Assembly: GCF_044324785.1 (NCBI RefSeq) | Contig: NZ_CP172127.1 | Length of the DNA stretch: 64,000 bases | Strand: one strand, 5' to 3' | From: Escherichia coli | GTDB taxonomy: Bacteria; Pseudomonadota; Gammaproteobacteria; Enterobacterales; Enterobacteriaceae | Shown: in pieces, positions 2,411 through 50,130 of the stretch | Position numbering within the stretch: position 1 is the first letter of the stretch | How the letters are laid out: every line of letters begins with the position of its first letter | Translations under genes and position numbers: made by a program | Notes under the pieces: generated by a model | Database searches by the model: none | Seen by the model: only the letters and a program-made list of their open reading frames with translations | Told to the model about the DNA's origin: nothing

Positions 2411-4066
2411 ATGACTAATCTTCCCCACTGGTGGCAAAACGGCGTTATCTACCAGATTTATCCAAAGAGTTTTCAGGACACCACGGGTAGCGGCACCGGC
2501 GATTTACGTGGCGTTATCCAGCGCCTGGACTATCTGCATAAACTGGGCGTTGATGCCATCTGGCTAACCCCCTTTTATGTCTCTCCCCAGGTCGATAACG
2601 GTTACGACGTAGCGAACTATACGGCGATTGATCCCACCTACGGCACACTGGACGATTTTGACGAACTGGTGACACAGGCAAAATCTCGCGGGATTCGTAT
2701 CATTCTCGATATGGTGTTTAACCATACCTCTACCCAACATGCCTGGTTTCGTGAGGCGCTGAACAAAGCAAGCCCTTACCGCCAGTTTTATATCTGGCGC
2801 GATGGAGAACCAGAAACACCACCGAACAACTGGCGTTCAAAATTTGGCGGTAGCGCGTGGCGCTGGCATGCGGAAAGCGAACAGTACTATTTGCATCTCT
2901 TTGCACCAGAACAGGCGGATCTCAACTGGGAGAATCCAGCGGTACGCGCAGAGCTGAAAAAAGTCTGTGAGTTCTGGGCCGATCGTGGGGTCGACGGGTT
3001 GCGCCTGGATGTGGTGAATCTGATCTCCAAAGACCCGCGTTTCCCTGATGACCTGGATGGCGACGGGCGTCGCTTCTACACCGACGGGCCACGAGCACAC
3101 GAGTTTTTGCACGAGATGAACCGCGATGTGTTTACGCCGCGCGGGTTAATGACCGTAGGTGAAATGTCCTCCACCAGCCTTGAGCATTGCCAGCGATATG
3201 CGGCACTGACAGGCAGTGAATTGTCGATGACCTTTAATTTTCATCACCTGAAAGTCGATTATCCCGGTGGTGAAAAATGGACGCTGGCTAAACCTGACTT
3301 TGTGGCGTTGAAAACATTGTTCCGCCACTGGCAACAAGGAATGCACAACGTGGCATGGAATGCCTTGTTCTGGTGTAACCACGATCAGCCGCGCATTGTT
3401 TCTCGCTTTGGTGATGAAGGTGAATACCGCGTGCCTGCGGCAAAAATGCTGGCGATGGTGCTGCATGGCATGCAGGGAACGCCATATATCTACCAGGGCG
3501 AAGAGATTGGCATGACTAACCCACATTTCACGCGCATTACTGACTATCGCGACGTGGAGAGCCTCAATATGTTTGCCGAGCTGCGCAACGATGGGCGTGA
3601 TGCCGACGAGTTATTGGCAATCCTCGCCAGTAAATCCCGTGACAACAGTCGCACACCCATGCAATGGAGCAACGGCGATAATGCCGGGTTTACGGCTGGC
3701 GAACCGTGGATTGGCCTGGGCGATAACTATCAACAAATCAACGTAGAAGCAGCGCTGGCCGATGAGTCCTCGGTGTTTTACACCTACCAAAAGTTAATCG
3801 CACTGCGTAAGCAAGAAGCCGTCCTGACATGGGGCGATTACCAGGATCTGCTGCCAAACAGCCCTGTATTGTGGTGCTATCGCCGTGAGTGGAAGGGGCA
3901 AACCTTGCTGGTCATTGCCAACCTTAGCCGTGAGACCCAACCCTGGCAGCCAGGGAAAATGCTCGGCAACTGGCAGCTTGTGATGCATAACTACGAAGAA
4001 GCCTCACCACAACCCTGTGCCATGACTTTACGGCCTTTTGAGGCTGTCTGGTGGTTACAGAAGTAA
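2411..4066 (+). CDS. treC: Trehalose-6-phosphate hydrolase (GH13 alpha-glucosidase)
   Basis: 551 aa from internal ATG (MTNLPHWWQNGVIYQIYPKSF...), GH13 motifs (DGLRLDVV, FNHT); longer ORF-track start at 2264 overlaps treB and is rejected. Confidence 0.9.
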   Translation: MTNLPHWWQNGVIYQIYPKSFQDTTGSGTGDLRGVIQRLDYLHKLGVDAIWLTPFYVSPQVDNGYDVANYTAIDPTYGTLDDFDELVTQAKSRGIRIILDMVFNHTSTQHAWFREALNKASPYRQFYIWRDGEPETPPNNWRSKFGGSAWRWHAESEQYYLHLFAPEQADLNWENPAVRAELKKVCEFWADRGVDGLRLDVVNLISKDPRFPDDLDGDGRRFYTDGPRAHEFLHEMNRDVFTPRGLMTVGEMSSTSLEHCQRYAALTGSELSMTFNFHHLKVDYPGGEKWTLAKPDFVALKTLFRHWQQGMHNVAWNALFWCNHDQPRIVSRFGDEGEYRVPAAKMLAMVLHGMQGTPYIYQGEEIGMTNPHFTRITDYRDVESLNMFAELRNDGRDADELLAILASKSRDNSRTPMQWSNGDNAGFTAGEPWIGLGDNYQQINVEAALADESSVFYTYQKLIALRKQEAVLTWGDYQDLLPNSPVLWCYRREWKGQTLLVIANLSRETQPWQPGKMLGNWQLVMHNYEEASPQPCAMTLRPFEAVWWLQK

Positions 4067-4078
4067 ATCTTCCCTAAG

Positions 4079-4108
4079 CCCCGGTAATGCCGATCATTCC
4101 GGGGTTTT
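4079..4108 (+). terminator. Rho-independent terminator after treC
   Basis: CCCCGG...CCGGGG stem followed by TTTT immediately after treC stop. Confidence 0.5.
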
Positions 4109-4239
4109 GTCTGTCAGTATGTTGTTTTTGTTGATTTTTCAACCAGCAAATTCATTAAAAAATTTACATAACGCTGTAGCGCCCGTCATCCGTACGCTCT
4201 GCTTTTTACTTTGAGCTACATCAAAAAAAGTTAAAACAT

Positions 4240-7220: not shown

Positions 7221-7264
7221 TAAGTTCCCTGTTACCTGAGTGCAGGCAACAGGGAAATAAGGAA

Positions 7265-16037: not shown

Positions 16038-16145
16038 GCGCCAGATAAGACACAACAGCGTCGCATCAGGCATCTCGCACAACCGCCGGATGCGGCGTGA
16101 ATGCCTTATCCGGCGGCCCACAAGTCGGCATCAGGCATTGATGCC
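16038..16145. repeat. REP/BIME cluster between ytfR and ytfQ
   Basis: Multiple GCCGGATGCGGCG.../CGCATCAGGC palindromic units. Confidence 0.55.
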
Positions 16146-17413: not shown

Positions 17414-17944
17414 ATGAGCTTACTCAACGTCCCTGCGGGTAAAGATCTGCCGGAAGACATCTACGTTGTTATTGAGATCCCGGCTAACGCAGATCCGATC
17501 AAATACGAAATCGACAAAGAGAGCGGCGCACTGTTCGTTGACCGCTTCATGTCCACCGCGATGTTCTATCCGTGCAACTACGGTTACATCAACCACACCC
17601 TGTCTCTGGACGGTGACCCGGTTGACGTACTGGTCCCGACTCCGTACCCGCTGCAGCCGGGTTCTGTGATCCGTTGCCGTCCTGTTGGCGTTCTGAAAAT
17701 GACCGATGAAGCCGGTGAAGATGCGAAACTGGTTGCGGTTCCGCACAGCAAGCTGAGCAAAGAATACGATCACATTAAAGACGTTAACGATCTGCCTGAA
17801 CTGCTGAAAGCACAGATCGCTCACTTCTTCGAGCACTACAAAGACCTCGAAAAAGGCAAGTGGGTGAAAGTTGAAGGCTGGGAAAACGCAGAAGCCGCTA
17901 AAGCTGAAATCGTTGCCTCCTTCGAGCGCGCAAAGAATAAATAA
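17414..17944 (+). CDS. ppa: Inorganic pyrophosphatase
   Basis: 176 aa, [44 protein letters not shown] signature. Confidence 0.93.
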
Positions 17945-18022
17945 GTTCTTCTAGCGTAATAACCCTGAACGCCGGGCTTCGGTTAGTAGGGGTTTTTTAT
18001 GCCCGCGATAAATAAACACACC

Positions 18023-18373
18023 TTATTCCACCACCGCCTGCAAACGTAATAACGCCTCTTCCACCACCTCACCCGCAGCCAGACCAATACGCTTTGCCAG
18101 CCGGGCGCGTAGATCCATCATCCGCACCTGATTCACCAGCACCACGCCGTGCACATCGCCTTCTTCGCAATGTAAAGGAACGCTAAATCCGGCATAACGG
18201 GCAAAATTTCCGCCCTGCGTAATGGGGGCCACCAGCGTCATTCCCAGTTGATTAAAGGCTTGAACGGAGAGCACAAGCGCAGGTCGACCAGCACCTTGCT
18301 GTTCATGGCCGCTTGCTGGATCAAAGCCAACCAGCACAATGTCTCCCCGTTCAAATTCACTTTTCTTTACCAT
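18023..18373 (-). CDS. chpB: Toxin ChpB (MazF-family mRNA interferase)
   Basis: 116 aa PemK/MazF fold (ERGDIVLVGFDPASGHEQQGAGRPALVLS); overlaps antitoxin gene by 7 nt. Confidence 0.88.
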   Translation of the reverse strand: MVKKSEFERGDIVLVGFDPASGHEQQGAGRPALVLSVQAFNQLGMTLVAPITQGGNFARYAGFSVPLHCEEGDVHGVVLVNQVRMMDLRARLAKRIGLAAGEVVEEALLRLQAVVE

Positions 18374-18618
18374 ATTTCGTCACCCGCAGGGGTGGATTTA
18401 CCCCAGACATCCTGCTCGCTAAGTTCCGTGGCGTTCATGTCACACTGTGCCAGCAGTTCATCAAGCGAGTAGCGCCTGGAGATGGGTGTCAGAATCAGTT
18501 GATTGTTGCTCACTTGCGCCTCCACGCTCTGCCCCGGCCGTAAGTTAAGTTCTTTCATCACAACATTAGGAATGACCATACCTGAACTGTTCCCCCATCT
18601 TTTTATGGTAATACGCAT
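18367..18618 (-). CDS. chpS: Antitoxin ChpS (AbrB/MazE-type)
   Basis: 83 aa from ATG preceded by AAGGAGG RBS (MRITIKRWGNSSGMVIP...). Confidence 0.85.
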   Translation of the reverse strand: MRITIKRWGNSSGMVIPNVVMKELNLRPGQSVEAQVSNNQLILTPISRRYSLDELLAQCDMNATELSEQDVWGKSTPAGDEIW

Positions 18619-18829
18619 CTGCACCTCCTTAAGTTATACAAAGTATAACTCACGGTGCTACAGGAAACGTTTTACCCCTGCGCATTTGTGAACGCCAGCA
18701 GAGTTTTTTATGCGTTAACAGATATGGAAAGCGGCTCGGAGAGAAAAGCAAAAGGTGAGGGAATTACAAAACAGAATGCGAGTCGTCTCGCAAAAAACAA
18801 CGCCACCCGAAGGTGGCGTATGCGTATGG

Positions 18830-19171
18830 TTACTTATCCCTGTCTAACCAGTCGCCGCTTTCAATTAGCTTTAATCCATCGACGGGTCGTTGATAAACGT
18901 ACATCCATGCACTCCCGTACGGCGTCTGAATCAACTGGCGCGCGTATTCACCGCCCCTGGTGCGCAAGGCATCAAGTTCGGCCAGCGTGGCGTTGTCAAT
19001 ACGATAAACTTCACCGTGTACTGTTCCGTTCCCCGGAACTGCGCCTGGATAGTGGCCCAGGCTATACAACTGGTAGTTATCGATACTGAAATCGCCCAGT
19101 AACTGGGCATTGGTCATCCAGTGACTGTTGCCTTGTTTGTGGCGTAAACTGCCGTAGACAAATATTCGCAT
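18830..19171 (-). CDS. ytfP: Gamma-glutamylcyclotransferase-family protein YtfP
   Basis: 113 aa, MRIFVYGSLRHKQGNSHWM... (GGCT/AIG2-like); 2 nt downstream of tamB. Confidence 0.85.
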   Translation of the reverse strand: MRIFVYGSLRHKQGNSHWMTNAQLLGDFSIDNYQLYSLGHYPGAVPGNGTVHGEVYRIDNATLAELDALRTRGGEYARQLIQTPYGSAWMYVYQRPVDGLKLIESGDWLDRDK

Positions 19172-25573: not shown

Positions 25574-25672
25574 TGCCGGATGCGACGTAAACGCCTTGCC
25601 AGGCCTACAAAACCCTCCAAATTCAATATATTGCAGGGACTTCGTAGGCCTGATCGGCATAGCGCATCAGGC
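25574..25672. repeat. REP elements between msrA and ytfL
   Basis: GCCGGATGCGACGTAAACGCCTTGCCAGGCCTACA and inverted partner. Confidence 0.5.
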
Positions 25673-25849
25673 AGTTTTTCATTTATCAACAGTCTGAATT
25701 TTAACCCTCTGGCGGCTTTACAGTACCTTACGCTATACTAGCCACTGAAAATGCCGGTTCACTTTCTTCGAATCGGCTTTCAATGTGTATTTCACACAAA
25801 TTAATCAACTTCCCCTTCCGAGGATCTGGCCTGAAAGGTCGGATAAGAT

Positions 25850-27785: not shown

Positions 27786-28340
27786 ATGACCCTACGCAAG
27801 ATTCTGGCACTCACCTGCCTGCTGTTGCCGATGATGGCTTCCGCACATCAGTTCGAAACCGGTCAGCGAGTGCCGCCGATTGGCATTACCGATCGTGGCG
27901 AGTTGGTGCTTGATAAAGATCAGTTTAGCTACAAAACCTGGAACAGCGCGCAGTTAGTGGGAAAAGTGCGAGTACTGCAACATATTGCTGGTCGCACCTC
28001 TGCAAAAGAGAAAAATGCGACGCTGATTGAAGCGATTAAATCAGCAAAGTTACCGCACGATCGTTACCAGACCACCACCATTGTTAACACCGACGACGCA
28101 ATTCCGGGTTCCGGCATGTTTGTGCGCAGCAGTCTGGAGAGTAATAAAAAGCTTTATCCCTGGTCGCAGTTTATTGTCGATAGCAATGGCGTCGCGCGCG
28201 GTGCCTGGCAGCTGGATGAAGAAAGTTCCGCTGTAGTGGTGCTGGATAAAGACGGTCGCGTGCAATGGGCCAAAGACGGGGCGCTCACACCGGAAGAGGT
28301 GCAGCAAGTGATGGACCTGCTGCAAAAGTTGCTCAAATAA
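27786..28340 (+). CDS. ytfJ: Periplasmic protein YtfJ
   Basis: 184 aa with signal peptide (MTLRKILALTCLLLPMMASAHQ). Confidence 0.85.
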   Translation: MTLRKILALTCLLLPMMASAHQFETGQRVPPIGITDRGELVLDKDQFSYKTWNSAQLVGKVRVLQHIAGRTSAKEKNATLIEAIKSAKLPHDRYQTTTIVNTDDAIPGSGMFVRSSLESNKKLYPWSQFIVDSNGVARGAWQLDEESSAVVVLDKDGRVQWAKDGALTPEEVQQVMDLLQKLLK

Positions 28341-28373
28341 TGGCAATAACATAAATTCTGCAAAAATAATTTT

Positions 28374-28400
28374 CCCCTATCGTTATCTATGGGATAGGGG
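28374..28400 (-). terminator. Hairpin with downstream T-run on minus strand; terminator of ytfI
   Basis: CCCCTATC...GATAGGGG stem flanked by AAAATAATTTT. Confidence 0.4.
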
Positions 28401-28429
28401 AATTAAGCCTCTGAGTTCTTACGCTGAAC

Positions 28430-29341
28430 TCATACTGGTAACGCTAGTTGCTTTTTTTTAAACGCCTCAATGGTCGATTTATATTTCTCGCAAATCTTTT
28501 CTTCGGTAATATCACTATCTGCGGCCAGATTCGCACTTACTATCGCATCCACTTGTTCGGCTAATTCGACTTGTTGGCAACCTGCATTAACCAGAAAATT
28601 ATAAATAAGAGAGTAATCTTCATCCTCCAAAACAACAGAGGAACCATTACGAAAACGTTCATCCCCTCCATAGATTTTAAGCGCAAAGCCCAAAGATTCT
28701 ATGACTATGGCAAAATTATCATCAATTATTTTTTCGTAAATATACCATCCATCGCATTCTTTAATTCCACCTCCTGGAATTTGGAGGTCAAATTTACCCC
28801 GTTTTAATTTACTTACTATATCATCCAATACAGCATAACCTAAAGACACGTCACCAAACGCCTGGCGAATATAACCTTTAATCCTTTCCGGTATGTCAGA
28901 CTGTTTTTTCTGCAGAATATCCCAGGCATACAATCTTCTGTTTTGTTCTAACGGAAACTCGCGGTTTTTGAAATCCATGAATGAGTTATACTCATTTATT
29001 GTTATGGGAATTTCTTCGTATTCAAATCCACTGCCTCGCAATGTCATTATATATTCGGCACCGTTATCTTTAAGGCTGAAACTGATAAGAAACTTATCCA
29101 TGGCGTTAACAGTTTCATTTTTTGATGAAAGTACCTGATAACTATTTTTATCAATCTGAGTTGCGCAACGAAAGAACTCCCGCAAAGTTAACAGGCTATC
29201 ATAATTCGAAATCCAATCTTTTTTATTAAATGCATGCTGGATATTGTTAAAAAAATTGTTTGAATGTGTTTTTGTATGCGATGATTTTACGAATAACTCC
29301 ACCGCACCAATAAAATTATTGTGTCTGATCCTGGGTAACAT
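28430..29341 (-). CDS. ytfI: Uncharacterised protein YtfI (AT-rich orphan gene)
   Basis: 303 aa, no recognisable motifs, markedly AT-rich relative to flanks; position between ytfJ and cysQ matches ytfI. Confidence 0.7.
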   Translation of the reverse strand: MLPRIRHNNFIGAVELFVKSSHTKTHSNNFFNNIQHAFNKKDWISNYDSLLTLREFFRCATQIDKNSYQVLSSKNETVNAMDKFLISFSLKDNGAEYIMTLRGSGFEYEEIPITINEYNSFMDFKNREFPLEQNRRLYAWDILQKKQSDIPERIKGYIRQAFGDVSLGYAVLDDIVSKLKRGKFDLQIPGGGIKECDGWYIYEKIIDDNFAIVIESLGFALKIYGGDERFRNGSSVVLEDEDYSLIYNFLVNAGCQQVELAEQVDAIVSANLAADSDITEEKICEKYKSTIEAFKKKQLALPV

Positions 29342-29552
29342 ATGGCTACCTTATTTTATTTGGTTATTTTATGTCGCCATTAAATATCTCATTATAGAAG
29401 TAAACTATCAAAAAACGCTCATTATTAAAATGTAACTTATTAGCAATTGAATTTTTGCACTTTAAATACAATCTCTTTTTATTTATAACTTTTTAGGTTG
29501 GGAGAAATCAGGATGGCAGATTCAGGAAATACACTGTTTCTGCCATCTGAAT

Positions 29553-30293: not shown

Positions 30294-30482
30294 TTCTCCA
30301 CCTCGTCTCTGTGAGCGGTGTTAACTTATTGTTTTACTTATACCCTATCGTTAATGAATGCGCCAACTGTGATAGTGTCATCATTTTCAAAGCGTAAAAT
30401 TGTGGCATTCTTCACTGTTCTATAAGTAAGACGTTTATTCTCCCTTTTCTTTCGTATTCCCGATGATAAAAGGATGTCCCTG

Positions 30483-35726: not shown

Positions 35727-35733
35727 TCTAAAA

Positions 35734-35758
35734 GCTGGATGGCATTGCGCCATCCAGC
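35734..35758. terminator. Bidirectional hairpin between convergent ytfE and cycA
   Basis: GCTGGATGGC-ATTGC-GCCATCCAGC. Confidence 0.5.
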
Positions 35759-35770
35759 ATGATAATGCGG

Positions 35771-37183
35771 TTATTTCCGCAGTTCAGCAGCCCGCTTCTT
35801 ACCAATAAACAGCCAGCCCAGCCCCAGTGCGATAAACCACAGCGGGGTAACCAGCAGCGCCTGGCGAGTGTCATCTTCCAGTGTCAGCAACACGACCACG
35901 AACACAAAGAACGCCATACATACCCAGCACATCAGCTTGCCGAGCGGCATCTTGTAGATCGACTTCTCATGCAGATGAGGACGCTGTTTGCGGTACACCA
36001 GGTACGAGCAAAGGATAATCGTCCAGACGAACATAAACAGAATCGCGGAAACGGTTGTAATCATCGTGAACGCGCCAATCACGCTGGGATTCACATACAA
36101 CATCACCACGCCGCCGAGCAGACAGATACAAGAGAAGGTCAGCCCTTTCGCGGGTACTGCGCGCTTAGAGAGTTTAGCGAACGCTTTCGGTGCCACACCT
36201 TCCTGCGCCAGACCAAACAGCATACGACTGGTAGAGAAGACGCCGCTGTTAGCGGAAGACGCCGCAGAGGTCAGCACCACAAAGTTAATCACGCTGGCGG
36301 CAGCAGGCAGCCCTACCAACACAAACAGTTCAACGAACGGACTTTTCTCCGGGACTACCGAACTCCACGGCGTCACGGACATAATCACAATCAGCGCGAA
36401 GACGTAGAACATAATGATACGGATCGGAATGGAGTTAATCGCGCGTGGCAGTGATTTCTCTGGATCTTTGGTTTCCGCAGCTGTTGTACCTACCAGCTCA
36501 ATCCCTACGAAAGCGAAAACCGCTATCTGGAATCCGGCAAAGAAGCCACTTAAACCTTTCGGGAACCAGCCGCCATCATTCCACAAATGCGCGAATGACG
36601 CTTCTACACCGGTCGGTGACTGAAAGTGCATCGCCACCATGACCAGGCCGACGACTATCAGCGACACAATGGCGACGATTTTGATCATCGCAAACCAGAA
36701 CTCCATCTCACCGAACATTTTCACGGTGGCGAGGTTGAGCGTCAGCAGCAGCACTATCACCGCCAGCGAGGCGACCCAGTCGGAGAGATCGGGGAACCAG
36801 AACTGAGCATAAGCCGTGATCGCCACCACGTCTGCCATACCGGTTACAACCCAGCAGAACCAGTAAGTCCAGCCGGTGAAATATCCTGCCCACGGCCCGA
36901 GTAAATCGGAAGCGAAGTCACTAAAAGATTTGTATTCCAGATTCGAAAGCAGCAATTCCCCCATTGCCCGCATCACGAAAAAGAGCATAAAACCAATGAT
37001 CATATAAACAAAAATGATCGACGGTCCGGCAAGACTGATTGTTTTACCGGACCCCATAAACAACCCAGTACCAATGGCACCGCCAATGGCAATAAGCTGA
37101 ATATGTCGGTTTGTGAGATTGCGCCGTAGCGACTGTTCAGCCGGAGCCTGATCATCGGCAACGACTTTTACCTGATCTACCAT
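35771..37183 (-). CDS. cycA: D-serine/D-alanine/glycine APC-family transporter
   Basis: 470 aa amino-acid permease (12 TM). Confidence 0.92.
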   Translation of the reverse strand: MVDQVKVVADDQAPAEQSLRRNLTNRHIQLIAIGGAIGTGLFMGSGKTISLAGPSIIFVYMIIGFMLFFVMRAMGELLLSNLEYKSFSDFASDLLGPWAGYFTGWTYWFCWVVTGMADVVAITAYAQFWFPDLSDWVASLAVIVLLLTLNLATVKMFGEMEFWFAMIKIVAIVSLIVVGLVMVAMHFQSPTGVEASFAHLWNDGGWFPKGLSGFFAGFQIAVFAFVGIELVGTTAAETKDPEKSLPRAINSIPIRIIMFYVFALIVIMSVTPWSSVVPEKSPFVELFVLVGLPAAASVINFVVLTSAASSANSGVFSTSRMLFGLAQEGVAPKAFAKLSKRAVPAKGLTFSCICLLGGVVMLYVNPSVIGAFTMITTVSAILFMFVWTIILCSYLVYRKQRPHLHEKSIYKMPLGKLMCWVCMAFFVFVVVLLTLEDDTRQALLVTPLWFIALGLGWLFIGKKRAAELRK

Positions 37184-43790: not shown

Positions 43791-45859
43791 GTCAGCTTGA
43801 TGACACCATCCTTGATGCGCTGACGCACGTCACTTTCCCAAAGGGGTTTGTGTCAGCAGAGCCAACGTCAATTGTCACCGTTGAGGATGTTGATTACCCG
43901 ATCTGGCAAGTTGATGCGCTGGTCGTTGGTAGCGGCGCAGCAGGATTACGTGCGGCAGTTGAACTTAAACGCCGCCAGCAAAATGTGCTGATCGCCACCG
44001 CCGGGTTATATATGGGGACGTCGGCATGTTCTGGTTCCGATAAACAGACGTTGTTTACCGCCGCTACCGCGGGCAACGGCGACAACTTCGCCAAACTGGC
44101 AGAGGCACTTGCGAGCGGTGGGGCGATGGATCACGACACCGCTTATGTCGAAGCGGTAGGTTCTCTGCACACTCTTGGCGGGTTGCAATATCTTGGTCTG
44201 GAATTACCGGAAGATCGCTATGGCGCGATTCTTCGTTATCAAACCGACCATGACGAAGCCGGGCGTGCAACCTCGTGTGGGCCGCGTACCTCAAGGTTAA
44301 TGGTGAAAGTGCTGCTGGAAGAAGTACAGCGTCTTGCTATCCCAATGTTGACCAGTGCAACAGTGATTAAACTGCTGCATCAGCGTGACGAAAACGGCGA
44401 AGACCGCGTGGCGGGGGCTATCCTCGCGACCGGTCATCGCGCCCATAACCCATGGGGGCTGGCAATTGTGATTGCGCCCAATGTGGTACTGGCAACAGGA
44501 GGGCCTGGCGAGCTTTATCGCGACAGTGTGTACCCACACAAATGTTTCGGCTCGCTGGGTCTGGCGCTGGAGGAAGGTCTGACGCTAACGAATCTGACTG
44601 AAAGCCAGTTTGGTATAGGCACACCGCGCAGCACGTTTCCGTGGAATTTGTCCGGGACTTATGTACAGGTGATCCCATATATCTATTCCGTGGATGCTGA
44701 GGGTAACGAGTATAACTTCCTCGCGGATTACTATCGCACCACCCAGGAGCTGGCTTCAAACATTTTCCGTAAAGGCTATCAGTGGCCGTTCCACGCCACT
44801 CGGGTGATGGATTTTGGCTCCAGCTTGTTAGATATGGCAGTAGCGCAAGAGCAGCAATCAGGGCGTCAGGTATTTATGGATTTCAATCGCAATCCTGAAG
44901 CGGTGCCGGGTGACCTGCCCTTCTCATTAGATCGACTGGACGACGACGTTCGCGCGTATCTGGAAAATAACGACGCTCTGGCACCATCGCCCATCGAACG
45001 GCTGCAACGAATGAATCCGCTGTCTATCTCGCTGTATAAGATGCACGGTTACGATCTCACCACACAGCCATTGCAGTTTGCCATGAATAATCAGCATATG
45101 AATGGCGGCATTGAAGTCGATATCTGGGGACAAACATCTCTACCCGGTTGTTTTGCAGTGGGGGAAGTTGCTGGCACACACGGCGTCACCCGACCTGGCG
45201 GCGCGGCATTGAATGCCGGGCAGGTTTTTGCTGTTCGTCTGGCACGTTTTATTGGTTGCACGCAAAAGCGGAATATTGATGGAGATATAGCACAGCTGGC
45301 AGCTCCGGCACTGGCTTCTATAAGAGAGATCATTACTCAGGCGCACGATAACGGGACCGGGATGCCGTTGTCGGTTGTGAGAGAAAAAATTCAGGCACGA
45401 ATGTCTGACCATGCGGGATTTATTTGTCATGCCGATAAAGTCCGACGCGCCACTCGTGATGCCCTGCTATTGAACGAATTTGTCCAACGGCATGGATTGG
45501 CAATCAAACATGTGGGTGAAGTTTCCGAGCTGTTTATGTGGCGGCATATGGCGCTGACTTCTGCCGCGGTATTAACACAATTAACGCATTATATTGATGC
45601 TGGTGGCGGCAGTCGTGGGGCGCGGATGGTTATTGATCCACAAGGCAAATGCCTACCACAAACTCGTCGCGGCGTAAAAGAAGAATGGCGTTTTCGCTCT
45701 GAACTCGCTGAAGATAAAAATCACAAATTAACAATTCAATATTCGCAAGGTTCTTTTATTACCGAAGTAAAGTCTTTACGTATGCAACCGTGTATTAACG
45801 GTATTTACTTTGAAAAAAACTGGCCAGACTTTTTAAAGGGAGACATTTACACACAATAA
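43787..45859 (+). CDS. FAD-binding oxidoreductase of the fumarate-reductase/succinate-dehydrogenase flavoprotein superfamily
   Basis: 690 aa; dinucleotide fold VVGSGAAGLRAA, later GEVAGTHGVTRPGGAALNAGQVFAVRLARF; ATGA overlap with upstream gene. Confidence 0.75.
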   Translation: MSQLDDTILDALTHVTFPKGFVSAEPTSIVTVEDVDYPIWQVDALVVGSGAAGLRAAVELKRRQQNVLIATAGLYMGTSACSGSDKQTLFTAATAGNGDNFAKLAEALASGGAMDHDTAYVEAVGSLHTLGGLQYLGLELPEDRYGAILRYQTDHDEAGRATSCGPRTSRLMVKVLLEEVQRLAIPMLTSATVIKLLHQRDENGEDRVAGAILATGHRAHNPWGLAIVIAPNVVLATGGPGELYRDSVYPHKCFGSLGLALEEGLTLTNLTESQFGIGTPRSTFPWNLSGTYVQVIPYIYSVDAEGNEYNFLADYYRTTQELASNIFRKGYQWPFHATRVMDFGSSLLDMAVAQEQQSGRQVFMDFNRNPEAVPGDLPFSLDRLDDDVRAYLENNDALAPSPIERLQRMNPLSISLYKMHGYDLTTQPLQFAMNNQHMNGGIEVDIWGQTSLPGCFAVGEVAGTHGVTRPGGAALNAGQVFAVRLARFIGCTQKRNIDGDIAQLAAPALASIREIITQAHDNGTGMPLSVVREKIQARMSDHAGFICHADKVRRATRDALLLNEFVQRHGLAIKHVGEVSELFMWRHMALTSAAVLTQLTHYIDAGGGSRGARMVIDPQGKCLPQTRRGVKEEWRFRSELAEDKNHKLTIQYSQGSFITEVKSLRMQPCINGIYFEKNWPDFLKGDIYTQ

Positions 45860-45951
45860 TTTTCAATATTTCCTCTGTACCTGATTTTTATTGCCTATTA
45901 CATGGAAATACCAACAACCAGGGTTTATTAATATAATTAAAAGGTTTAAAA

Positions 45952-47229
45952 ATGAATAAAATAAAGAATTATCGATGGCATATGATTGCCCTCGTATGCT
46001 TTATCACTGTAATCAATTATCTGGACAGAACGGCGTTAGGTATTGCGGCTCCAACGATTATGGAGACAACCGGAATAACTAAAGAGCAATATTCATGGAT
46101 TGTCAGTGCATTCCAGTTGGCCTATACATTAGGGCAACCGGTAATGGGCTTCTTTATTGATACCGTGGGTCTGAAGTTAAGTTTTGCGATATGTGCCGCA
46201 ATTTGGGGCCTGGCGACAATGGGCCATGCACTAACCGGAACGTGGTCTGGTCTGGCATTTATGCGCGCCCTGATGGGTTTCAGCGAAGCGTCGGCAATTC
46301 CGGCGGGTGTAAAAACCGCATCAACATGGTTCCCGGCAAAAGAGCGTGGCGTGGCGACAGGTGTTTTCAATATGGGCACCTCACTCGGCGCGATGCTTGC
46401 TCCACCGTTGATTGCCTGGTGCATTATGTTTCATAGCTGGCAATTTGCGTTTATTGTTTCAGGTAGCCTTGCTTTGCTCGCGGCTTTATTTTGGTTCTTT
46501 TGTTATAAAGATCCGAAAGATGCCAAACGCCTTTCTGATGAAGAGCGCCACTATATTGAATCAGGGCAAGAACAGCATCTTAAAACAGATAAGAAAGAAA
46601 AAACGTCAATCAAGCATATCCTCAGCCAACGTAATTTCTGGGGGATTGGCATCGCGCGTTTTCTCGCAGACCCGGCATGGGGAACCATTAACTTCTGGGT
46701 GCCGATTTTCTTCGTCGAAACGCTGCATTTTAGCCTGAAAGAAATTGCCATGTTCGTCTGGCTGCCTTTCCTGCTGGGCGATCTCGGCTGTTTAGCCAGT
46801 GGTTTTGTCGCGAAGTTCTTCCACGATCGCGGCGTGAGTTTAATTAACTCACGAAGAATTACCTTCACTATTGCAGCCGTCATTATGATGACGATTGGCC
46901 TGGTGAGTATTGTCGAAAATCCCTACATTGCCGTATTACTGATTAGTATTGGCGCGTTCTCGCATCAATGTCTTTCTACTGTAGCAGCAACTCTGGGTGG
47001 CGATCTGTTCAAAAAAGACGAAGTAGCTACCGCAGTGGGTATGGCAGGAGCCTGTGCGTGGAGCGGTCAGTTGATTTTCAACCTGTTCATCGGGGCATTC
47101 GTTCACATTATCGGCTTCGCGCCGTTCTTTATTGCCCTGGCTTTCTTTGACATTATTGGTGCTATTGCGTTGTGGACGCTTATCAAAGTTAAAGATGAAG
47201 AACCGCAAGTACAGCTAGCTACCCATTAA
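45952..47229 (+). CDS. MFS transporter, anion:cation symporter (ACS) family, ExuT/DgoT-like
   Basis: 425 aa; N-terminus NYRWHMIALVCFITVINYLDRTALGIAAPTIME and FPAKERG loop resemble hexuronate/aldonate transporters. Confidence 0.85.
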   Translation: MNKIKNYRWHMIALVCFITVINYLDRTALGIAAPTIMETTGITKEQYSWIVSAFQLAYTLGQPVMGFFIDTVGLKLSFAICAAIWGLATMGHALTGTWSGLAFMRALMGFSEASAIPAGVKTASTWFPAKERGVATGVFNMGTSLGAMLAPPLIAWCIMFHSWQFAFIVSGSLALLAALFWFFCYKDPKDAKRLSDEERHYIESGQEQHLKTDKKEKTSIKHILSQRNFWGIGIARFLADPAWGTINFWVPIFFVETLHFSLKEIAMFVWLPFLLGDLGCLASGFVAKFFHDRGVSLINSRRITFTIAAVIMMTIGLVSIVENPYIAVLLISIGAFSHQCLSTVAATLGGDLFKKDEVATAVGMAGACAWSGQLIFNLFIGAFVHIIGFAPFFIALAFFDIIGAIALWTLIKVKDEEPQVQLATH

Positions 47230-47242
47230 TTATTTTAAATAA

Positions 47243-47272
47243 AAACGCTATAATTGAGGTTATGGCGTTTTT
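47243..47272 (+). terminator. Probable rho-independent terminator after the MFS transporter gene
   Basis: AAACGCTATAA...TTATGGCGTTT stem (one G-U pair) followed by T-run. Confidence 0.4.
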
Positions 47273-47499
47273 AAAGAAGCTTGAGTTATCGAACCTCGCT
47301 TACCAACGCGTTGTCAATCATATCCCCCCTCCCTGCTGCATCGTTATATCCACAATGAGCGATTTTTGATATTAATATCTTTCACCATCCGCTATTTTCA
47401 CTACTTCAGAAAACAAACTTATTTTTATTAATATCGATTCTTTATTCTGTAAACATTCAGCTGAGATATTTATAAAAACATTAAACAGGCAACGATACA

Positions 47500-48294
47500 A
47501 TGACATTACCAACCACTATTTATTCATTTCCTGCATATTCACCCCGTTTTTCGTCCACCGACAAACCAGTAAAATTAAAATTTCATCAATACGCACGCGC
47601 TACATTACTTTCAAATCGTGGAAGAGATCATAATTGCGATGGCAGACATACTGTTGAGATCCACAAACTAGATCTCTCAGACTGGCAAGCATTCAATAAA
47701 CTAGCGATGGCGTGTAATGCTTACGATGGAATAACAATGAATGGTGATAATTCTTTTGGATGGAACCATGAAGCTACATTAGATAATATTCACGCCCAGA
47801 AATACAATAAAGCTTACGCGGGTGCGAGGTTAACCGCAGAACTGAAATATTTATTGCAAGATGTCGAATCCTTCGAACCCAACAGTAAATACACAATACA
47901 CGAGGTTGTTTTGGGTCCAGGTTATGGTACTCCAGACTATACCGGCCAAACGATAGGATACGTTGTAACCCTTCCTGCCCAAATGCCTAATTGCTGGTCA
48001 TCTGAACTACCAACAATCGATCTTTATATCGACCAACTTCGCACTGTTACAGGCGTTTCTAATGCCCTCGGATTCATCATTGCTGCATTGCTAAACGCGT
48101 ATTCTGATTTACCCCATGATTTGAAAATTGGTCTGCGTTCCTTATCAAGTTCAGCAGCAATCTACTCGGGTTTGGGTTTCGAGCGAGTGCCGCAGGGCCG
48201 AGACATAAGGTGCGATCATATGCATCTAACGCCAGCAAACCATCCTGAATTATGGACACAAGAGAATGGTGAATGGATCTACTTGCGAAACTAA
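47500..48294 (+). CDS. yjfZ: Uncharacterised DUF2686-like protein YjfZ (AT-rich gene)
   Basis: 264 aa, no motifs recognised, preceded by 270-bp AT-rich spacer; position next to rplI matches yjfZ. Confidence 0.7.
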   Translation: MTLPTTIYSFPAYSPRFSSTDKPVKLKFHQYARATLLSNRGRDHNCDGRHTVEIHKLDLSDWQAFNKLAMACNAYDGITMNGDNSFGWNHEATLDNIHAQKYNKAYAGARLTAELKYLLQDVESFEPNSKYTIHEVVLGPGYGTPDYTGQTIGYVVTLPAQMPNCWSSELPTIDLYIDQLRTVTGVSNALGFIIAALLNAYSDLPHDLKIGLRSLSSSAAIYSGLGFERVPQGRDIRCDHMHLTPANHPELWTQENGEWIYLRN

Positions 48295-48317
48295 TACCTG
48301 ACGAAAAATAGAAAGCA

Positions 48318-49408: not shown

Positions 49409-49822
<414 letters not shown>

Positions 49823-50130
49823 TTATTCAGCCTCCTGTCTGGGTCAGCCGAATCCCGGGGAGGCAAGGAACGTGTTAAAGGTCGGCTGAAAAATGACGCG
49901 TTATAGTACTGACATACCCCGCTAAACTCAAGGCCAGCCGACAAATAAATCTCATCTTTCACCAAATCGTACTAACACACTGATTTGAAGTTCATCACAC
50001 ATCATCATGGTGTTTTTTTGAACAACTGCATCAGAAATGGTCACCATCAACTTCTTTATCATTGATTAAAATTAAATCAGAAGATCATCACAAAGGAGAG
50101 CACACAAAGTCAGCCGTCGAGGAGGTATCT

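Follow-up and report, generated by a model that had tools for sequence, protein, structure and literature searches.

The chromosomal chpS-chpB toxin-antitoxin operon in an Escherichia coli genome and a decayed alternative at the same site

The chpSB toxin-antitoxin (TA) system of E. coli has been known since 1993. Masuda et al. 1993 and Zhang et al. 2005 are cited for it in a later study (PMC7781912). The K-12 toxin ChpBK is, like MazF, a ribosome-independent endoribonuclease of the mRNA interferase type (PMC8546651). Its cleavage site is ACY (Y = U, A or G), and the loss of protein synthesis that it causes is only partial (PMC7781912). Transcriptome-wide mapping placed the cut before the AC of UAC (U^AC), irrespective of codon position (PMC8546651). 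Two related systems are the closest points of comparison. MazE-MazF (chpA) shares with ChpSB the superfamily, the catalytic Arg/Thr pair and an antitoxin that can be aligned up to a C-terminal Trp; however, the two toxins are only 37% identical, the mazEF locus is a different one, downstream of relA, and MazF, which cuts at ACA, shuts down translation more fully than ChpB does (PMC7781912). Kis-Kid (parD) of plasmid R1, which is the PemI-PemK system of R100, resembles chpSB in that the antitoxin gene comes first. In parD, Kis binds an 18-bp palindromic operator, the left half of which overlaps the -10 element (PMC1865072). Unlike chpSB, Kis-Kid is plasmid-borne and a true post-segregational killer, and Kid recognizes UAH, as compared with ACY/UAC for ChpB (PMC7781912).

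The chpS-chpB pair analyzed here, at its canonical locus, is this already known system. The only material that is, mildly, new concerns a dimorphism of intact and relic states at the site and a conserved palindrome upstream of chpS.

The locus, its proteins and its setting in the window

In the window, by which we mean the whole 64-kb stretch of DNA that was analyzed and which corresponds to the treR...yjfC region of E. coli, the toxin gene chpB (chpBK) lies at 18023..18373 and the antitoxin gene chpS (chpBI) at 18367..18618, both on the minus strand. They are flanked by ppa (17414..17944, plus strand), which is convergent with chpB, and by ytfP (18830..19171, minus strand), the neighbor upstream of chpS. 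An earlier note on this DNA had placed a chpS-chpB pair between ppa and ytfP, and its coordinates proved to be exact, with synteny as in K-12. K-12 and 3097 complete genomes all have the gene order ppa-chpB-chpS-ytfP-tamB, and the position between ppa and ytfP recurs in E. coli ECCNB12-2 and three other Escherichia lineages. The layout is that of a type II TA operon, with the antitoxin gene first, an overlap of 7 nt and a single strong ribosome binding site (RBS). Direct reading gave the overlap as ATGGTAA at 18367..18373 (minus strand), in which chpB starts within the ...TGG TAA end of chpS; the length reported earlier was thus correct. By analogy, we infer that the overlap could couple the translation of the two genes. 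In the open reading frame list chpS appears as 18367..18624 (minus strand), i.e. as 85 aa from a GTG. Because this upstream GTG overlaps the Shine-Dalgarno sequence, we take the ATG two codons 3' of it (18618..18616) as the true start, which yields an 83-aa product coinciding with residues 1-83/83 of the ChpS model.

Both proteins were assigned by profile comparisons, and the family assignments made earlier from the letters of the DNA were borne out for antitoxin and toxin alike. The 116-aa product of chpB (MVKKSEFERGD..., as translated in the open reading frame list), a PemK/MazF/Kid-family endoribonuclease, matched its NCBIfam equivalog (NF007320/NF008463 set) over 1-116/116 with 226.8 bits (cut-off 129, E = 3.9e-68), and Pfam PF02452 (PemK_toxin) over profile positions 1-108/109 with 88.7 bits (cut-off 23.1, E = 3.7e-25). 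ChpS matched its equivalog of the same set over its full length with 192.8 bits (cut-off 101, E = 7e-58). Its residues 5-49 matched Pfam PF04014 (MazE_antitoxin) with 44.5 bits (cut-off 24.7, E = 1.5e-11), which places a SpoVT/AbrB-like DNA-binding domain of the MazE type at the N-terminus. The MazF and MazE equivalog models scored the window proteins far under their cut-offs. The nearest solved structure to ChpB is that of Kid (1m1f; E = 6e-21, 45% identity over 107 residues), and from this identity we infer that ChpB would adopt the SH3-like barrel of the CcdB/MazF fold. ChpS can be aligned with MazE (1mvf/1ub4) as far as the terminal Trp (...DEIW versus ...KEVW), and by this alignment its C-terminal tail is a putative toxin-binding segment.

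The window proteins are 98% (ChpB, b4225) and 95% (ChpS, b4224) identical to those of K-12, and the DNA of the cassette is 98.5% identical. Locus, lengths (83 and 116 aa), the 7-nt overlap and the RBS are common to both, and the upstream region shows two substitutions, neither of them within the palindrome described below. ChpB has R89 and G101 where K-12 has H and D; ChpS has S12, V19, R27 and T64 where K-12 has A, I, Q and A, respectively. R89 is found in the window and in all other Escherichia lineages seen, so that H89 of K-12 ChpB appears to be the derived state; MazF also has R at this position, and Kid has Lys. G101, on the other hand, is specific to the allele group of the window.

A 901-nt query spanning the locus was 100% identical to E. 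coli ECCNB12-2, for which RefSeq annotates chpB and chpS. This complete identity is confined to the chpSB locus, the two sequences being neither collinear nor identical elsewhere. The nrdG-cybC spacer (window 7221-7264) measures 44 nt, and ECCNB12-2 has a TA pair of the RelE/RelB-DinJ family there. The earlier view of chpS-chpB as the one recognizable addiction/stress module in the core part of the window was compared with the ECCNB12-2 annotation only, whose one extra pair, RelE/RelB, is absent here. Further differences are of other kinds. The insert at 28328-29552 between ytfJ and cysQ contains a 303-aa open reading frame (28430..29341, minus strand) that carries the RefSeq name ytfI. It has no Pfam match. 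ECCNB12-2 lacks it, as do all but about 1603 of 5426 complete E. coli genomes, and we therefore regard it as an accessory gene. Between ytfE and cycA, ECCNB12-2 has two hypothetical genes that are missing near window 35727-35793. Window 45619-48312, beside rplI, is a replacement polymorphism: genes for an MFS transporter (45952..47229) and a DUF2686 protein (47500..48294) occupy the site that in ECCNB12-2 holds three TRAP-transporter genes.

Sequence elements around the operon

The Shine-Dalgarno sequence of chpS, AAGGAGG, is located at 18624..18630 (minus strand), 5 nt 5' of the ATG, and is followed by TGCAG and then by the start codon, in line with the strong RBS described earlier. Except for its first bases, it is kept in all six orthologous loci compared. 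One nucleotide upstream of it, a repeat search revealed a perfect 8-3-8 palindrome of 19 bp, AGTTATAC-AAA-GTATAACT, at 18632..18650. No second copy of it occurs in the 64-kb window, and 100 shuffles yielded no match at up to 2 mismatches. It is intact in five of the six orthologous loci, three other Escherichia lineages among them. Its first arm in the coding orientation contains the -10-like hexamer TATACT (plus-strand positions 18642-18647), which agrees with the -10 consensus at five of six positions. With region I of parD as the model, the palindrome is a likely candidate for the operator of ChpS (ChpS-ChpB). If ChpS acts like Kis and MazE, its AbrB-type domain would bind the 19-bp palindrome over TATACT, leading to autorepression of the operon; on this analogy, ChpS probably represses its own operon at the conserved site.

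The palindrome is part of an extended imperfect inverted repeat at 18619..18663 (minus strand), which was found by the same search and has 21-nt arms that are 76% complementary. The RNA of this interval, if it is made, is predicted to form a hairpin (-18.6 kcal/mol, z = -3.5) in which part of the chpS Shine-Dalgarno sequence is paired. If transcription starts upstream of it, the modeled hairpin may provide a second, translational layer of control.

Further upstream, a terminator scan located the ytfP terminator at 18777..18819 (minus strand), which comprises a strong hairpin of 8 pairs with a T-run behind it, and then a second hairpin. As judged from the sequence, this element would insulate chpSB against read-through from ytfP, and chpSB should therefore have its own promoter. 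Upstream of chpS on the minus strand, neither the built-in scan nor a relaxed scan (-10 with at least 4/6 matches, -35 with at least 3/6, spacer of 15-19) returned a sigma-70 promoter, and no -35 element was recognizable; the one conspicuous feature was the TATACT within the palindrome. On the other side of the operon, the terminator of the convergent ppa (17954..18002, plus strand; hairpin of -18.8 kcal/mol followed by U6) lies 21 nt beyond the chpB stop codon. For chpB itself we recognized no terminator, the minus-strand RNA downstream of the gene folding no better than shuffled sequences (z = +0.73). A search with Rfam revealed no RNA family in or beside the chpSB locus. The gathering-threshold matches in the window, which comprise naRNA4 (CssrE), ES036 (CssrF), STnc450, ES239 sRNA and the RpsF leader, are situated at 16039-16115, 25609-25651, 25731-25788, 30360-30482 and 49802-49886, none of them near chpSB.

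Integrity of the two genes and possible roles

In E. coli MazF and homologous toxins, the catalytic and stabilizing roles are generally assigned to R29 and T52 (PMC8887465, PMC10893535), and loss of the MazF catalytic residues had been set beforehand as a check on the toxin. A four-way alignment of the window ChpB with K-12 ChpB, Kid and MazF showed that none is lost: MazF Arg29 and Thr52 are kept as ChpB Arg30 and Thr52, both in invariant columns. H23 of ChpB aligns with H17 of Kid, which is the only Kid equivalent retained. In place of Kid R73 and D75, which had been proposed as catalytic, all ChpB sequences examined, that of K-12 among them, have L79 and N81 (in the alignment, ChpB residues 79, 81 and 89 fall within window 18107-18139, minus strand). 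Residues of the Kid R73/D75 type are not conserved across the family (PMC8887465), and K-12 ChpB is an active nuclease despite L79/N81. Because of these replacements, the Kid-specific mechanism is not transferable to ChpB.

Orthologues were retrieved by a DNA pattern scan for chpB with one genome per species. The gene was found in four records (the E. coli-labelled E69, Escherichia sp. MOD1-EC7003, Escherichia sp. E1V33 and E. whittamii), and each of them is collinear with the window across all of ppa-chpB-chpS-ytfP, with about 94% identity. Relative to the orthologues of cryptic-clade Escherichia, dN/dS ranged from 0.08 to 0.17 in chpB and from 0.09 to 0.16 in chpS (dS 0.18-0.39). With values of about 0.1, both genes are therefore under purifying selection. 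Within E. coli, approximately 559 complete genomes carry a cassette at least 99% identical to that of the window.

These data bear on the reading that the locus is a decaying or inactive remnant, i.e. a TA-like sequence in which the toxin is dead or the antitoxin broken. Decay does occur at this site, as 2321 of 5426 genomes hold nothing but a chpB relic and in one genome a partial pseudogene is annotated, and the window allele has two substitutions in ChpB and four in ChpS relative to K-12. However, both open reading frames are full length with respect to the equivalogs, the catalytic R30 and T52 are present, the low dN/dS applies to both genes, the allele is shared by hundreds of genomes, and the substitutions are either conservative or back to the state of the other lineages. 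We hold an inactive remnant to be very improbable. From its sequence, we read the locus with high confidence as an allele of chpS-chpB (chpBI-chpBK), a chromosomal type II TA operon of E. coli, that is intact and functional. Being intact and under selection, this allele can be counted as functional in strain-level inventories.

If the functional allele behaves as described in the K-12 literature, ChpB would cut single-stranded RNA sequence-specifically at ACY/U^AC and inhibit translation in part, and ChpS would neutralize ChpB by binding it through its C-terminal tail. As for Kis and MazE, a labile ChpS that is not replenished would then set the toxin free; a review lists the protease acting on ChpBI as unknown (PMC3021852). 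Counts of UAC, ACA, ACG and ACU in chpS and chpB were no different from those in mononucleotide shuffles, and hence gave no sign of self-targeting or of its avoidance within the two genes.

As to what the operon is selected for, stress response, anti-addiction and phage defence are roles that the sequence does not tell apart. The biochemistry could be as supposed and the selected role nevertheless be anti-addiction against plasmid-borne pem/parD, or abortive infection of phages. Several observations speak in favor of such a role: the nearest solved relative of ChpB is, at 45% identity, the plasmid toxin Kid; pemIK homologues of about 44% identity occur on thousands of enterobacterial plasmids; laboratory-selected mutant ChpBI variants, and these alone, were reported to neutralize Kid (PMC7354431); mazEF has been linked to phage defence (PMC7781912, PMC12151602); and a strain without five TA loci, chpB included, displayed no stress phenotype (reviewed in PMC3021852). 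However, cross-neutralization by wild-type ChpS is not established, no defence-system model of PADLOC matches ChpB or ChpS, and the target triplets of ChpB are not depleted in RNA coliphages, unlike the ACA of MazF (PMC12151602). No sequence feature separates the proposed roles. We consider selection for anti-addiction or phage defence unlikely.

In a plasmid collection, 60 records encode ChpB-like proteins at 60-80% identity. One of the seven matches of at least 99% identity is a record of 4.9 Mb, evidently a chromosome entered among the plasmids.

Intact and decayed states of the ppa-ytfP spacer

We surveyed the cassette, defined as window 18023-18667, in 5426 complete E. coli genomes. It is complete in 3097 of them (57%), while in 2321 (43%) the ppa-ytfP spacer measures 379 nt and contains a heavily decayed chpB of one shared architecture instead; the remaining eight genomes show other arrangements. 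Alignment of occupied and seemingly empty sites with MAFFT misplaced the relic, and the chpB remnants were revealed by local BLAST with small words. By local alignment, the relic spacer retains the last codons and the stop of chpB, followed by a first deletion that corresponds to window 18034-18228 and is bounded by CCACCA microhomology. Next comes a 125-nt remnant from the N-terminal half of chpB, equivalent to window 18229-18355, and a second deletion (window 18356-18667) has removed the rest, so that chpS, RBS and palindrome are gone. The remnant still reads ...LPASGYEQQNGGR..., with stop codons.

Patchy presence, in 57% of genomes, would be expected if some E. coli lineages had recently acquired a mobile addiction module by horizontal insertion between ppa and ytfP, and TA loci are usually accessory (PMC7167474). 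However, genomes without the cassette have no clean empty site, but a decayed chpB fragment with internal deletions, and the ppa-chpB-chpS-ytfP stretch is collinear, at about 94% identity, in genomes of three other species-level Escherichia lineages, one of them E. whittamii. The GC content of chpSB, about 53%, is similar to that of its neighbors, and neither flanking direct repeats nor mobility genes were detected at the locus. Given the synteny across Escherichia, the normal GC content and the lack of flanking repeats, recent horizontal insertion was rejected as highly improbable. The relics at the seemingly empty sites, together with the synteny in other Escherichia, indicate that chpSB is ancestral at this position and was lost by deletion.

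The remnant is only about 74% identical (about 26% diverged) to every intact chpB, whereas over the same stretch intact chpB genes of the various Escherichia lineages share at least 95% identity. On either side, the coding sequences of ppa and ytfP agree at 95-100% between the relic and intact haplotypes. The long branch of the relic could reflect an early loss, acquisition from a divergent lineage, or decay that was rapid and AT-biased. If the divergence measures age, and not import or a burst of mutation, the spacer would be a species-wide, two-state polymorphism whose loss allele dates back at least to the separation from the cryptic clades and has persisted alongside the intact allele since. 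We put this forward tentatively, as a possibility that is on balance doubtful. If true, the two-state spacer would amount to a natural long-term experiment on whether a chromosomal TA pair is beneficial, neutral or costly. Independently of its age, relic versus intact offers a simple marker for asking why chromosomal TA pairs are retained or dropped. TA loci are described as unevenly spread among E. coli phylogroups in work cited in PMC7167474, and presence of chpB/chpS has been associated with isolates from healthcare-associated bacteraemia (PMC6096937).

Two individual genomes depart from the simple pattern of the two haplotypes. E. coli HH45 (locus 2393-2904) has the deletion architecture of the relic, yet over 101 nt its chpB fragment matches the window at 100% identity, with about 140 nt of G-rich sequence coming next; it may represent a gene-conversion mosaic or an assembly artefact. 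Two types of right flank exist, which are about 85% identical to each other, and in E. coli NWU_4 (locus 3356-4163) an intact chpSB is joined to a right flank 100% identical to that of the relic haplotype. The flank is thus separable from the presence of the cassette, which points to recombination within the spacer.
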